In this document: in pieces, positions 216 through 5,308 of the stretch
Numbering within the stretch: the first letter of the stretch is position 1
How the letters are laid out: every line of letters starts with the position of its first letter
Source of the DNA: a virus
Lineage: Duplodnaviria > Heunggongvirae > Uroviricota > Caudoviricetes
Virus record (IMG/VR): IMGVR_UViG_3300029484_000045
Length of the DNA stretch: 5,768 nt
Strand: one strand, 5' to 3'
Translations under genes and position numbers: made by a program
The notes under the pieces: model-generated
Databases searched by the model: none
Seen by the model: only the letters and a program-made list of their open reading frames with translations
Told to the model about the DNA's origin: nothing

Positions 216-245
216 AATGTAGGATATCCAACATACCAATGTCAA
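216..245 (-). promoter_or_regulatory. PR-like promoter driving cro
   Basis: On the minus strand: -35 TTGACA (complement of 240-245), 18-nt spacer, -10 TACATT (complement of 216-221). Same -35/spacer/-10 architecture as the PL-like promoter at 1020-1049. An operator overlaps the -10/spacer. Confidence 0.6.
217..234. promoter_or_regulatory. Operator OR1-like, 18-bp palindrome ATGTAGGATATCCAACAT
   Basis: Near-perfect 18-bp palindrome. Its exact reverse complement occurs at 1031-1048 and a 17/18 variant at 996-1013. Lies between the -35 and -10 of the cro promoter. Confidence 0.7.
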
Positions 246-263: not shown

Positions 264-281
264 TGGTAGGATTGCCTACAT
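264..281. promoter_or_regulatory. Operator OR3-like overlapping the repressor start codon
   Basis: TGGTAGGATTGCCTACAT matches the operator consensus at 14/18. Overlaps the first ATG of the repressor ORF (280-282), as expected for autoregulation at a PRM-like promoter. The PRM -35/-10 could not be placed confidently. Confidence 0.5.
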
Positions 282-933
282 GATGAACATGAGTGATCGT
301 ATTCGCCAAAGGCGAAAAGAACTGAACCTGACACAACAAGCACTGGCTGATTTGACTGGTGTGAACCGTGTCACGGTTACTGGATGGGAAAAGGACGACT
401 ACCAACCAAATGGAGCCAACCTTCAAGCCCTAGCCAACGCACTTAAATGCGATCCTCTGTGGCTTGTTAGCGGAAAAGGCTCGCCTGAACCAAAGATAAA
501 TCTAAAACCTGAAATATTCGCAGTTAAAAAAGTCCCCCTCATCTCGTGGGTTCAGGCGGGTTCATGGACAATGACGGAGCCTGGTGTCAGGAAAGAAGAT
601 GCTGAAGAGTGGGTTTATACTACCGCCCTTGTATCAGAAATGGCATTTGCACTACGGGTCCGTGGTGATTCAATGACCAATCCCCTCGGCTCACCATCGA
701 TACCAGAAGGTTCTATCGTTATCGTAGAGCCAGATATTATTGATACAGAGTGTATTAACGGAAAAATCGTTGTTGCCCATATCAATGGTGGGCAAGAAGC
801 GACACTCAAAAAATTTGTTGAGGACTGGCCGAACAGGTATCTCGTCCCACTAAATCCTAACTATAAAACTATTGAATGCGGTGAGAACTGCAGAATAGTT
901 GGTCTTGTCAAACAAGTAATAATGGATTTTTGA
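280..933 (+). CDS. cI: CI/C2-type phage repressor (XRE HTH + S24 LexA-like autopeptidase domain)
   Basis: 217-aa ORF. N-terminal HTH (LTQQALADLTGVNRVTVTGWE). Ala-Gly autocleavage site (WVQAGSW), catalytic Ser in RGDSM and Lys in EATLKKF. Co-linear with P22 C2 as I recall it (PLISWVxAGxW, GDSM, SIPEG, NGKxVVA, ATxKK, PLNP). Three in-frame ATGs at 280, 283 and 289; true start unresolved. Confidence 0.9.
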   Translation: MMNMSDRIRQRRKELNLTQQALADLTGVNRVTVTGWEKDDYQPNGANLQALANALKCDPLWLVSGKGSPEPKINLKPEIFAVKKVPLISWVQAGSWTMTEPGVRKEDAEEWVYTTALVSEMAFALRVRGDSMTNPLGSPSIPEGSIVIVEPDIIDTECINGKIVVAHINGGQEATLKKFVEDWPNRYLVPLNPNYKTIECGENCRIVGLVKQVIMDF

Positions 934-953
934 CACATCTTCCTCACTATCGC

Positions 954-979
954 AAAACCGGGGTATCCCCGGTTTTTTT
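954..979 (+). terminator. Rho-independent terminator after the repressor gene
   Basis: A-tract, GC stem CCGGGG (958-963) / CCCCGG (967-972) with 3-nt loop TAT, then T7 tract at 973-979. Flanking A and T tracts make it look bidirectional. Confidence 0.8.
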
Positions 980-995
980 ATGAGCCTATCTTTTT

Positions 996-1019: not shown

Positions 1020-1049
1020 TTGACACTCACATGTTGGATATCCTACATT
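1020..1049 (+). promoter_or_regulatory. PL-like early-left promoter (rightward in this window)
   Basis: -35 TTGACA at 1020-1025, 18-nt spacer, -10 TACATT at 1044-1049. Operator OL1 sits in the spacer and -10. Mirrors the cro promoter. Confidence 0.65.
1031..1048. promoter_or_regulatory. Operator OL1-like
   Basis: ATGTTGGATATCCTACAT, the exact reverse complement of the site at 217-234. Confidence 0.7.
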
Positions 1050-1060
1050 TGTTTTTAGAG

Positions 1061-1114
1061 TTGTGGTGAATGCGCAGGCTGATGCGCGAAAGACATTGCA
1101 GCTATTGCGGAAAA
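1061..1114 (+). repeat. 54-bp direct repeat, copy 1 (PL transcript leader)
   Basis: Identical 54/54 to 1730-1783 (offset 669 bp); 5 of the 6 preceding bases also match. Contains hairpin GCGCA-GGCTGA-TGCGC at 1071-1088. Confidence 0.95.
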
Positions 1115-1166
1115 GAGCTGTTCGGCGGGGCCATTAAACGCCCGTATCTGGAGGTTAAAGAACAAA

Positions 1167-1300: not shown

Positions 1301-1373
1301 GTATTCTCTTTACGCCGTGCTTTGGAACAGGCTGAAGTATTTCCATCAGACCCTGAATGGAAATGGCCTTTTT

Positions 1374-1619
1374 CTATTTGTCCAAATTCGGAGAGCACAT
1401 TTCAGAAAATTGGTCAGAAAGTCGCACTCGAAGAGCATCAGCCAACTGTTTCCTGATTTTTTCAGGTAACTCGTCGGCATCGCAGAAACAACAACGCTCG
1501 ATCATGTTGAAAGCCGATTCGTAGAACTGTTTCTGCTGAGTGTCGCTGAGACAGGAAAAGAGCGACGTTACGATGATTTTATTAATTGCATTATCAAGTT
1601 CTTTTTCATCAAAAGTCAT
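1374..1619 (-). CDS. Hypothetical 81-aa acidic protein, antisense to the PL operon
   Basis: Minus-strand ORF with ATG (complement of 1617-1619) and SD AAGGA about 6 nt upstream. Product MTFDEKELDNAINKIIVTSLFSCLSDTQQKQFYESAFNMIERCCFCDADELPEKIRKQLADALRVRLSDQFSEMCSPNLDK is net acidic with 5 Cys. No family recognised. Confidence 0.55.
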   Translation of the reverse strand: MTFDEKELDNAINKIIVTSLFSCLSDTQQKQFYESAFNMIERCCFCDADELPEKIRKQLADALRVRLSDQFSEMCSPNLDK

Positions 1620-1729
1620 TTGATTTTCCTTTTATGTATACGGGCTTAAAAGGATACCACCGAGCCTGAAGTGGTGAAAAGACAGGCACATAACAGCTAA
1701 GTATTTTCAACCAGAGAGAATCCTTAGCG

Positions 1730-1783
1730 TTGTGGTGAATGCGCAGGCTGATGCGCGAAAGACATTGCAGCTATTGCGGAAAA
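1730..1783 (+). repeat. 54-bp direct repeat, copy 2
   Basis: Identical to 1061-1114. Followed at once by an N-run, so the true repeat length may be greater. Confidence 0.95.
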
Positions 1784-1794
1784 NNNNNNNNNNN
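1784..1794. other. Run of 11 N (masked or unresolved bases)
   Basis: Seen directly, adjacent to repeat copy 2. Confidence 1.
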
Positions 1795-1871
1795 CCCACC
1801 CGTCTGGTGTGCAACCTTCGCCAGGCACCGGGAGGCACCCGGCACCACAACTTTATGCTGTGTGTAGTCCT

Positions 1872-1918
1872 GGCGGTACCAGTTTGTACCCTTGCTTCCG
1901 GCTGGTACCGTCCTTTTT
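1872..1918 (+). terminator. Candidate intrinsic terminator / regulatory hairpin in the leader upstream of yfdP
   Basis: Perfect inverted repeat CGGTACCAG (1874-1882) / CTGGTACCG (1902-1910), extendable to about 13 bp with G-U pairs, loop about 15-19 nt, then C and a T5 tract (1914-1918). Each arm contains a GGTACC palindrome, so a protein-binding DNA site is an alternative reading. Confidence 0.4.
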
Positions 1919-2055
1919 ACAAAACAGAGAAGAGCATCACCGGACGACGGGCTCATAACCCAATCCATCCGGGCGGCTGCCACCGCAGGTGTTCTTCTCT
2001 GTTTTGTGGAGAAACCAACCGACCTTGCAGGGTCGATATGATGAGGAGCAGCAAA

Positions 2056-2418
2056 ATGGCTAGCGAACGCAGTACTGATGTGCAGGCATTTATCGGGGAG
2101 CTGGACGGCGGCGTATTTGAAACCAAAATCGGCGCAGTTCTCAGTGAAGTCGCTTCCGGTGTGATGAACACGAAAACCAAAGGGAAGGTCTCACTCAACC
2201 TGGAAATCGAACCATTTGATGAGAACCGTGTGAAAATCAAACACAAACTCTCATATGTTCGCCCGACTAACCGCGGGAAAATTTCCGAAGAAGACACCAC
2301 CGAAACGCCGATGTATGTCAATCGCGGTGGTCGCCTGACTATTCTGCAGGAAGACCAGGGACAATTACTGACTCTTGCCGGTGAACCTGACGGAAAACTC
2401 CGCGCAGCAGGTCATTAA
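2056..2418 (+). CDS. yfdP: YfdP-like prophage protein (120 aa)
   Basis: ATG at 2056 preceded by strong SD GAGGAG (2045-2050). 120-aa product MASERSTDVQAFIGELDGG... matches the length and position of E. coli CPS-53/KplE1 YfdP as I recall it. The longer track ORF 1732-2418 is rejected as the start. Confidence 0.8.
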   Translation: MASERSTDVQAFIGELDGGVFETKIGAVLSEVASGVMNTKTKGKVSLNLEIEPFDENRVKIKHKLSYVRPTNRGKISEEDTTETPMYVNRGGRLTILQEDQGQLLTLAGEPDGKLRAAGH

Positions 2419-4757: not shown

Positions 4758-5308
4758 GCGAGATTAACTATCAGGCTCTGCGACTGGCGGCAGAAAATGC
4801 AACACCAGGCGAATGGTGTGCTGATGACTACCATGGAGTAATTGCCGATGCCGGACTGAACGCCAATTACTACATAGCATCATGCTCAGGACCAGATAAT
4901 CGCGCCAATAAACGATTCATAGCCGCCGCCAATCCTGCCACCGTCTTGGCGCTGCTGGATGAGCTGGAAGCAGCAGAGAAGCGAAACGCTGAATTACAAA
5001 GCGAGAATGCATACATCCGCAACCGGTACAAAGAACTGGACCTATTAATCGGGAAAAACATTCTGGTCATGCAGGCTGCCATTATCGAATGGCAGGCAAC
5101 TGGCGACGCTAAGAGCGGACTGGCATGGATTTATAACACACTGTTTGGCCCTGGCGAATTACCGGACGAATCTGAGAAAGATGCTCAGGCCTACTTTAAT
5201 CGCAAATATGCACCGATTGACGAAAAGCTCATGGCGCTTCACAAGTGGTTTTGGGAACAAAGTGAAGCCGAGCGCGCCGCCGCCAACATTGGTGTGAAGG
5301 GGAAGTGA
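4754..5308 (+). CDS. Ead/Ea22-like early-region protein (184 aa)
   Basis: GTG start at 4754 overlapping the upstream stop (GTGA), with strong SD AGGAGG 6 nt upstream. Predicted coiled-coil segment LLDELEAAEKRNAELQSENAYIRNRYKELD resembles Ead/Ea22-like proteins of enterobacterial lambdoid prophages (from memory). The family call is less certain than the existence of the gene. Confidence 0.7.
   Translation: MSEINYQALRLAAENATPGEWCADDYHGVIADAGLNANYYIASCSGPDNRANKRFIAAANPATVLALLDELEAAEKRNAELQSENAYIRNRYKELDLLIGKNILVMQAAIIEWQATGDAKSGLAWIYNTLFGPGELPDESEKDAQAYFNRKYAPIDEKLMALHKWFWEQSEAERAAANIGVKGK

Follow-up and report, generated by a model that had tools for sequence, protein, structure and literature searches.

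What occupies the GC-rich stretch of about 260 nucleotides (nt) ahead of yfdP in the virus record IMGVR_UViG_3300029484_000045 (Caudoviricetes)? The 5,768 nt analysed here, hereafter the window, span the immunity and early-left parts of a prophage resembling SfV, and the interval in question (1795-2055) separates the upstream part of the early-left operon from yfdP. An earlier note, made from the sequence alone, had seen in it a single untranslated leader, and had offered an early-left terminator, a nut- or put-like element, a structured RNA or an array of protein-binding sites as candidates. A structured RNA with an intrinsic terminator, situated in the early-left operon downstream of an operator-flanked promoter, is indeed what we find, as is the rise in GC content (0.51-0.60 over 1750-2049 against 0.31-0.47 in the upstream flank). 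The leader is not a single unit, however, but consists of three separable, independently conserved modules, of which the first reaches upstream to 1729. The interval corresponds to the 3' two-thirds of a conserved cassette of non-coding RNA that is located between the immunity region and the first gene of the early-left operon, and the region combines a diverged variant of known prophage small-RNA modules (STnc100/PasD, DicF) with a conserved RNA that is not listed in Rfam. SfV-, ST64B-, mEp460- and Qin-type lambdoid prophages carry such cassettes, and many temperate enterobacterial phages have them at the start of the early-left operon. This answer is carried by structures that covary in relatives, by homology or positional orthology to STnc100 and DicF, by the promoter context and by the non-coding status of the interval. 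A DicF-like prophage small-RNA cassette, with processing, termination and module roles as in Qin, is in our view the best explanation and a fairly probable one.

The first module is a structured core of the STnc100/PasD family, of which the interval contains only the 3' part (1795-1851; coordinates of all features are given in Table 1). STnc100, a small RNA of prophages to which the literature assigns no function, is a relative of PasD (bioRxiv 10.64898/2026.05.13.724894), an Hfq-dependent small RNA found in enteropathogenic Escherichia coli and visible on Northern blots (PMC8550237; bioRxiv 10.64898/2026.05.13.724894). The Rfam search that the earlier note had proposed returned STnc100 (RF02076) as the sole meaningful match in the window, at 1699-1920 with 38.1 bits (E = 9e-6; gathering threshold 47 bits). 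The unmasked relatives CT02 (43.1 bits) and SfV (39.5 bits) also score below the threshold, the window and its class B relatives together spanning only 35-43 bits, and class A relatives reach 53-208 bits. The window shares with the family the closing helix P1 (xxGGUG/CACCxx), the GGUGAAU junction, the P2 hairpin, the CACCGGGAGGCACCCGGCACC hairpin core and a 3' intrinsic terminator, whose 13-bp hairpin and U5 align to the terminator part of the Rfam model. The core motif is an invariant 21-mer found in more than 120 IMG/VR viral contigs, with an exact copy at 1825-1845, and the contigs that carry it have in common the 5' motif GGUGAAU-CCCCCUnnGCGGnGGGGC and a closing helix with covarying outer pairs. 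Inverted-repeat search and folding find P1, P4 and P5 intact in the window, and P1 and P5 covary in relatives. The long-range helix P1, which closes this upstream domain, had been overlooked in the earlier note; P5 is the small CCGGG/CCCGG hairpin that it had rightly recorded. The window and class B cores differ from other members of the family in lying inside the early-left operon with no obvious promoter of their own, whereas many class A copies have promoter-like -35/-10 hexamers just upstream of P1 (judged by eye) and late-region locations, for instance after stx2B.

The core also contains a pseudoknot, which has not previously been reported for the STnc100 family and is absent from the consensus structure line of Rfam. 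The P4 loop, immediately 5' of CCGGGAGGCACCCGG, is complementary to the segment right after P2; this pairing is kept in more than 15 distinct covarying sequence versions across the family, and for 54 of 90 unique sequences it is significantly better than with shuffled loops. In the class B alignment, whose ten members include ST64B and the Qin copy, pairing is seen in 98.5% of cells, compared with 27-46% when the partners are slid; compensatory changes occur at five of the six pairs of the pseudoknot helix and none of 500 shuffles scores as well. Covariation of P4 was judged sequence by sequence, as the MAFFT alignment (A3) put its 5' strand out of register. In some class B cores one strand has two alternative partners, a local hairpin or the pseudoknot. 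We considered, and discarded, a riboswitch-like coupling of P2 to the terminator: the P2 3' strand equals the terminator 3' strand in copies of the VT2-Sakai type, which is not general in the family.

The 5' third of the core has class C sequence and its 3' part class B sequence. In particular, 1729-1783 is an exact repeat (55 nt) of 1059-1113, which belongs to a truncated class C copy near the promoter; full class C elements are present in K-15KW01, mEp460 and Stx2a_WGPS2. Because 1729-1783 duplicates the 5' part of class C, the window's core is a C/B hybrid, and the join is concealed by a run of masked bases (N, 1784-1794) that lies directly upstream of the interval and had escaped the earlier note. 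Pattern scans across the masked run did not find this join in 5,426 complete E. coli genomes, in IMG/VR viral contigs or in species-representative genomes. The hybrid may be a rare recombinant or a scaffolding artefact. The window's P4 loop CAACCUU is present, and its class B partner AAGGUUG is not in the visible class C part; 11 masked bases lie at the join. The core is possibly impaired or mis-assembled, since it is a hybrid across a masked gap with no visible pseudoknot partner. The truncated class C copy ends where the orf33 module begins, and at the conserved P1/P2 sequence GTTGTGGTGAATGCG phage modules seem to have been joined by recombination. An interpretation of the 55-nt repeat as the N-terminus of a ClpX-type zinc-finger gene ("CSYCGK" motif, a PGAP label in 730V1) was rejected, that gene being a separate open reading frame (ORF; L126 1317-1520).

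The second module is a single-stranded linker followed by an intrinsic terminator. The inverted repeat and the T5 tract behind it, both noticed earlier, are present, the former with exact 9-nt arms (1874-1882 / 1902-1910) that RNAfold lengthens to 13 bp. The hairpin folds with -21.4 kcal/mol (z = -3.05), and its stem covaries in relatives. In the linker, GCUGUGUG(U/A)AGUCUU is conserved among versions from E. coli, Salmonella, Citrobacter and IMG/VR contigs (23 representative sequences aligned), and the hairpin beside it varies by complementary substitutions. We interpret the constancy of this stretch next to a varying stem, a pattern usual for small-RNA seeds, as an indication of a candidate small-RNA seed and RNase E target. 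A pairing of the stretch with the 5' arm of the third module (UGUGUGU/ACACACA) was also considered, but is confined to some lineages and shows no covariation.

The first two modules likewise account for the GGYACC hexamers. Their positions had been given correctly (GGCACC at 1824, 1834 and 1841; GGTACC at 1875 and 1904; GTACC at 1886), and the motif is enriched, with 10 occurrences on both strands of the window against 3.3 ± 2.0 expected and none of 200 shuffles reaching 10. All three GGCACC fall in the core sequence CAGGCACCGGGAGGCACCCGGCACC, at the end of P4, in the loop and stem of P5 and at the start of the P1 3' strand, while the copies of GGTACC form opposite arms of the terminator stem, where relatives have other complementary pairs (GGTGCC/GGTACC, GGCATC/GATGCC, GTCGGCGTC/GACGCCGAC). 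The supposed array of protein-binding sites is therefore dismissed, because the hexamers form covarying or invariant RNA helices, of which they are by-products.

The hairpin of the second module occupies the position of DicF. In the Qin dicBF locus (L237; Table 1) a P1-closed class D core precedes DicF, and in contig L136 a core of the same Qin type is directly followed by a window-type hairpin, the three-way-junction RNA described below and a 5'-truncated yfdP-like (MVRSSK) start; since the same core precedes either DicF or the window-type hairpin, the two are positional equivalents. The Rfam DicF model (RF00039, cut-off 48 bits) matches the homologous hairpins of phage contigs L212 (E = 0.004) and L157 (E = 0.017), both with 29.6 bits, and a graded series of sequences joins DicF (UUUGGCGGUAUCAGUUUU...CUGCCGCCCUUUUU) to the window (CCUGGCGGUACCAGUUUG...CUGGUACCGUCCUUUUU), with UUUGGCGGUAxCAGUUU and CCGYCCUUUUU as its common parts; GGCGGUAxCAGUUU ... 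CCGYCCUUUUU is the sequence that the window hairpin shares with DicF. Like DicF, the hairpin lies in a repressor-controlled lambdoid early operon, after a P1-closed core and before another structured RNA and the first gene, ends as an intrinsic terminator and is flanked by structured RNAs that would provide processing sites. It differs from DicF in its larger loop and in the element that follows, which is a three-way-junction RNA in the window and an STnc100-like core in Qin.

The lengths agree as well. In Qin, DicF is cut from the dicBp transcript as a 190-nt form with an RNase III-dependent 5' end and as a 53-nt form with an RNase E 5' end, both of which end at the terminator, and no longer read-through species was detected (bioRxiv 10.1101/2023.04.14.536235). 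DicF, which binds Hfq, further exists as a 72-nt form whose 3' end is made by RNase III at a downstream site (PMC5069750). In L237, a stretch of 190 nt that ends with the DicF U tract would begin within a few nt of the base of P1, so that the "190-nt DicF" appears to be core plus DicF. In the window, the distance from the start of P1 to U5 (1729-1918) is also 190 nt, from which we infer the same processing.

The third module, a three-way-junction RNA, is the strongest structure of the region (-48.3 kcal/mol, z = -7.31). The earlier note had passed over this hairpin, which with its 25-nt arms (1919-1943 / 1983-2007) is far stronger than the one it reported. It contains an invariant 20-mer, ACGGGCUCAUAACCCAAUCC (1947-1966), that occurs in more than 120 viral contigs. 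In an alignment of 19 diverse sequences 95.2% of cells are paired, compared with 37-50% when slid; nine pairs show compensatory changes and none of 500 shuffles is as good. Rfam has no match to this RNA. As a rule it immediately follows an intrinsic terminator and precedes the first early-left gene, be this yfdP/sb37-like, yfdR-like or unrelated. A comparable place is taken in phage lambda by the RNase III site of the N leader, a long irregular hairpin that lies behind a promoter-proximal RNA element and ahead of the ribosome-binding site that serves the first early-left gene. The RNA of the window differs in being a three-way junction with an invariant 20-mer, and its cleavage by RNase III is presumed. 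It also contains CGGGCUCAUAACCC (GGG-CUCAUAA-CCC and the preceding C), identical to the anticodon arm of an E. coli tRNA-Met; the gene of this tRNA, which we take to be the initiator, is present in 5,426 of 5,426 E. coli genomes with a median of four copies.

Several observations on the start of yfdP indicate that none of these modules is translated. Downstream of the long stem a conserved GGAGAAAC is followed by a small predicted hairpin (2020-2025 / 2030-2035) and a Shine-Dalgarno sequence, GAGGAG (2043-2048), 7 nt before the ATG at 2056; PGAP uses the equivalent ATG in CT02, K-15KW01 and 730V1. In E. coli-type relatives the reading frame of yfdP stays open over 243-378 nt upstream, but a stop inside the core closes it in class C, and in diverged YfdP homologues it is closed 15-96 nt upstream of the start. 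The same RNA module precedes unrelated first genes, and substitutions in the region are compensatory in helices and not patterned by codons. On these sequence comparisons the interval 1795-2055 is non-coding, as had been supposed, and the longer YfdP that the earlier note had raised as a refutation is contradicted by the in-frame stops. At the end of the long stem begins a tiny ORF of 11 codons (2006-2041; GTG-GAG-AAA..., V/M-E-K...), and its stop codon TGA overlaps an ATG at 2038. It was rejected as a real peptide: equivalents range from 4 to 46 codons and keep only "EK(L/P)T", so the conservation is probably at the level of the RNA (GGAGAAAC). SrsR boxes have been reported in the yfdO/yfdP spacer of K-12 (PMC9181523); none was seen in the window by eye, and the K-12 upstream sequence differs.

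By analogy with Qin, the cassette would work as follows. Transcription from the repressor-controlled promoter would run through the three modules. Upon derepression, termination at 1918 and an RNase III cut at the base of P1 would yield an RNA of about 190 nt (1729-1918) that comprises core and hairpin, and an RNase E cut in the single-stranded stretch could release an Hfq-dependent small RNA of about 65 nt acting in trans, with GCUGUGUGUAGUC as its candidate targeting stretch. In read-through transcripts RNase III may cut the 20-bp long stem of the three-way-junction RNA, which would separate the small RNA from the yfdPQR mRNA and set the 5' end and the translation of the latter.

A number of observations weigh against this explanation. 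Every processing step proposed for the locus is carried over from Qin dicBF. The core of the window remains below the STnc100 gathering score, lacks a visible class B pseudoknot partner and contains, across 1784-1794, a join that the scans of genomes and viral contigs did not find elsewhere; moreover, the lengths of masked runs are unfaithful, as a second run (1283-1300) replaces 4 nt of the relatives. The Rfam DicF model has no match in the window even at E <= 10, and the single-stranded 5' stretch is UGCUGUGUGUAGUCC in the window, but UUUCUGGUGACGUUU in DicF. DicF itself, an Hfq-dependent RNA acting in trans, represses ftsZ, xylR, pykA and manX. RNAduplex gave -37.7 kcal/mol for the window RNA against the ftsZ leader, compared with a shuffled mean of -38.1 kcal/mol, in a crude test that does not separate genuine DicF from shuffles either (fraction 0.19). 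Finally, the invariant loops of the core and of the three-way-junction RNA suggest a specific binding partner, which the proposed mechanism does not explain.

The likeliest of the alternatives is that the modules are tRNA-derived mimics for tRNA-recognising machinery (RNase P, VapC-type anticodon nucleases, methionyl-tRNA synthetase, the 30S P site) and act as processing signals or as decoys against tRNA-targeting defence. P1 and P5 are laid out as an acceptor stem and a T arm, with P5 abutting the P1 3' strand (CCGGGAGGCACCCGG-CACCACAAC) exactly as the T arm of L212 abuts its acceptor strand (CCGGGUUCGAGUCCCGG-CGCCACAAC). L212 (4364-4488, minus strand) and L218 (1077-1203, minus strand) carry tRNA-like genes with an insertion of about 50-64 nt, which are missed by ARAGORN and followed by a DicF-like hairpin and the three-way-junction RNA; the sequence in their GUUGUGG...CCACAAC slot scores above the cut-off of 29 bits of the Rfam tRNA model (43.9 bits in L218, 29.5 bits in L212). 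Class A copies occur in arrays beside real tRNA genes, the three-way-junction RNA contains the anticodon arm mentioned above, and a variant in Klebsiella phages, closed by GGCCUG/CAGGCC and (A/G)CCA, follows tRNA-Asn and tRNA-Arg. If the idea were true, P1 would be the acceptor stem, CCGGG-AGGCA-CCCGG the T arm and the pseudoknot a stabiliser of the core, and the three-way-junction RNA would present the initiator anticodon hairpin. The conserved loops would then be handles for tRNA-recognising enzymes that steer the processing of small RNAs from operon transcripts by RNase P and RNase III, or could decoy tRNA-targeting host defences such as anticodon nucleases cutting initiator tRNA; VapC targets the anticodon loop of this tRNA. 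We nevertheless consider this unlikely. Neither ARAGORN nor the Rfam tRNA model has a match in the window (for the latter even at E <= 10) or in elements of classes B-G, ARAGORN detecting no tRNA in ten related loci with other core classes either. The window modules have no D-arm or T-loop signature and no encoded CCA, the P5 loop of 5 nt is not a T-loop, and the anticodon-like stem consists of only 3 + 2 pairs with internal loops. In Qin, moreover, formation of the 5' end at the P1 base requires RNase III, and RNase P is not known to cut there (bioRxiv 10.1101/2023.04.14.536235). The wider proposition that the STnc100/PasD/DicF-flanking cores and the three-way-junction RNA form one tRNA-derived superfamily at the head of early and late operons of temperate enterobacterial phages appears improbable to us as well.

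The terminator poses a problem of its own, as expression of yfdPQR, and in SfV also of xis and int, requires that it be read through, and no N-like gene is present in the early-left operon of the window, SfV, ST64B or mEp460. The cassette might therefore replace the missing N by a put- or riboswitch-like processive antitermination or attenuation in cis, the core modifying RNA polymerase or switching conformation such that the terminator at 1872-1918 and later ones are passed. Its promoter-proximal position, with a truncated copy some 3 nt after the predicted PL start, would fit, as would the alternative partners of one strand in some class B cores; in HK022, too, putL is a structured RNA just downstream of PL that is followed by terminators in a phage lacking N (PMC9378689). 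Yet the put RNAs, which bind the zinc-binding domain of the RNA polymerase beta-prime subunit and suppress terminators downstream, are of about 70 nt with two stem-loops, unlike the multi-helix pseudoknot of about 120 nt in the STnc100 family, and neither a sensitive blastn search against the HK022 PL region nor comparison by eye gave significant similarity, so that the nut- or put-like identity considered in the earlier note is not upheld. The family moreover occurs as self-contained units, in late regions in arrays of 2-5 copies, beside tRNA genes and after stx2B, although antitermination would need only one copy. The terminator is variable in sequence and in its spacing from the core, no conserved alternative pairing links the two, and the homologous Qin arrangement is processed to small RNAs with no longer read-through species detected (bioRxiv 10.1101/2023.04.14.536235). 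We regard such a role as quite unlikely. A better candidate for a put-like antiterminator than the interval 1795-2055 is a conserved two-stem element of about 75 nt, GAACAGGCAGGACGCCCACGAAGUAGCCGCC...CCGGAUGAUUCG, which directly follows PL in SfV (L001 ~1886-1965), K-15KW01 (L126 ~1232-1300) and ST64B (L130 ~1952-2010) and is not found in the window; its second stem covaries (CCUGG/CCAGG against CCGGU/ACCGG).

It is also conceivable, though distinctly improbable, that the cassette of this prophage has no function at present, being in decay or a chimera of the assembly. Among complete genomes the closest relative is CT02, a truncated prophage with an incomplete baseplate gene beside cro and a frameshifted pseudogene called by PGAP over the RNA element, and the window itself has the truncated class C copy after PL and the hybrid with its masked join. 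The masked run 1283-1300 shifts or breaks the orf33 reading frame; relatives have AGTT there. However, 1795-2055 is 98-99% identical to functional phages including SfV and PhiR49_1, P1 is a perfect helix and all helices of P4, P5, the terminator and the three-way-junction RNA are intact. Finally, the open upstream frame, which starts with ATG in class B, the "frameshifted hypothetical protein" annotated over the region by PGAP and the enrichment of GGYACC would fit a YfdP lengthened at its N-terminus, a small protein of its own or an array of DNA sites, all of which are very improbable in view of the in-frame stops, the unrelated genes behind the three-way-junction RNA, the compensatory substitutions, the exchanged GGTACC arms and the Shine-Dalgarno sequence at the annotated start.

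The DicF-like cassette is set in a gene order that matches the annotation of phage SfV and of E. coli CT02, and the operator pattern scan found three sites where 0.00 were expected (Table 1).

Table 1. Positions of the RNA modules, genes and signals in the window, with the Qin dicBF locus (L237, its own coordinates) in the last four rows
Feature	Position	Strand	Basis or remark
cro-like gene	ends 188	-	
Third copy of operator ATGTAGGATATCCAACAT	217-234		between cro-like and cI-like genes
LexA-type / cI-like repressor	280-933		HTH_3 and Peptidase_S24 domains
Terminator after repressor	~957-980		
18-bp operator ATGTAGGATATCCAACAT, two copies	996-1013, 1031-1048		flank and overlap early-left promoter
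Early-left (PL-type) sigma-70 promoter TTGACA-18-TACATT	1020-1049	+	promoter scan, 10/12 matches
Truncated 5' part of class C core	1059-1150	+	alignment with CT02 and SfV; starts ~3 nt after predicted PL start
orf33-like ORF		+	downstream of early-left promoter
STnc100/PasD-family structured RNA core	1729-1851	+	Rfam, P1 inverted repeat, fold, covariation in relatives
P1 closing helix	1729-1737 / 1843-1851		perfect 9 bp, inverted-repeat search
P2 hairpin	1742-1757		
P4 hairpin	1802-1809 / 1819-1826		
P5, T-arm-like hairpin	1828-1832 / 1838-1842		loop AGGCA; stacks directly on P1
Single-stranded linker UUUAUGCUGUGUGUAGUCCU	1852-1871	+	unpaired in centroid fold
DicF-like intrinsic terminator	1872-1918	+	13-bp stem 1872-1884 / 1900-1912, 15-nt loop, UCC, U5 1914-1918
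Three-way-junction RNA ("module 2"), 95 nt	1916-2010	+	fold, covariation
Long stem of three-way-junction RNA	1916-1938 / 1988-2010		
Three-way-junction arm 1	1940-1944 / 1968-1972, 1946-1947 / 1964-1965, 1949-1951 / 1959-1961 (GGG/CCC)		loop CUCAUAA 1952-1958
Three-way-junction second hairpin	1973-1976 / 1983-1986		
yfdP translation-initiation region	2011-2058	+	fold; PGAP start in relatives
yfdP	2056-2418	+	
yfdQ (DUF2303), yfdR (5'-deoxynucleotidase-like), further genes		+	downstream of yfdP
Qin class D core	1369-1487		P1-closed
Qin DicF	1501-1558		76.7 bits
Qin class B STnc100-like core	1565-1705		38.8 bits; P5 CCUGG-AGGCA-CCAGG, a compensatory variant
Qin dicB	start 1728		

DicF is among the oldest known bacterial small RNAs and has been treated as a peculiarity of defective prophages. 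A BLAST study of 2016 found no DicF in about 2,000 phage genomes (PMC5069750). By the present comparison, temperate phages that are functional (SfV, ST64B, mEp460, phiNP and some Stx phages) have a diverged DicF-type module at the same operon position, between two conserved structured RNAs. The comparison provides three leads: a new small-RNA candidate that contains a conserved seed-like stretch and would be made on derepression of the prophage; a structural model, with pseudoknot and tRNA-like layout, for the widespread STnc100/PasD family; and a very stable three-way-junction RNA, absent from Rfam and bearing the initiator-tRNA anticodon hairpin, ahead of the first early gene. The RNA cassette likewise accounts for the spurious "hypothetical protein" and "frameshifted" annotations at this place in thousands of E. 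coli genomes.

Some minor observations concern the neighbourhood of the cassette and its relatives. Within the window, a putative minus-strand ORF of 81 amino acids (1374-1619) with no Pfam match overlaps the end of orf33, and a possible terminator-like hairpin (1656-1675, minus strand) lies upstream of its start. In phages of the mEp460 type (L127 1890-2200, L128 1830-2200, L133) a leader of about 330 nt separates PL from the core; with its T-arm-like fragments (for example GGUCCGUUCGAUUCGGAC and GCUGGUUCGAUUCCAGAC) it has the appearance of a degenerate tRNA array, and minus-strand "hypothetical proteins" are annotated over it. The Klebsiella-type variant of the three-way-junction RNA (GZ7, L129 2503-2590, and about 10 IMG/VR contigs) is located directly behind its two tRNA genes downstream of Q and resembles, with its closing helix and (A/G)CCA, a D-arm-less tRNA with a CAU anticodon loop. 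L136 has matches to IsrK and C4 antisense RNA (5039-5240; 64 and 82 bits), immunity-type small RNAs of the same phage group, a few kb from its cassette. In VT2-Sakai (L124 3972-4231) an STnc100 copy of 207.7 bits lies some 75 nt after stx2B and is followed by AsxR on the opposite strand, the two converging on one terminator region. Tandem STnc100 arrays of 2-5 copies are found in L013 (2265-3380, minus strand), L063 (4349-5513 and 8357-8555), L064 (11999-12414) and L080 (7149-7610); the array of L013 adjoins tRNA-Lys and tRNA-Met genes, and those of L063 and L064 are interleaved with IsrI matches.

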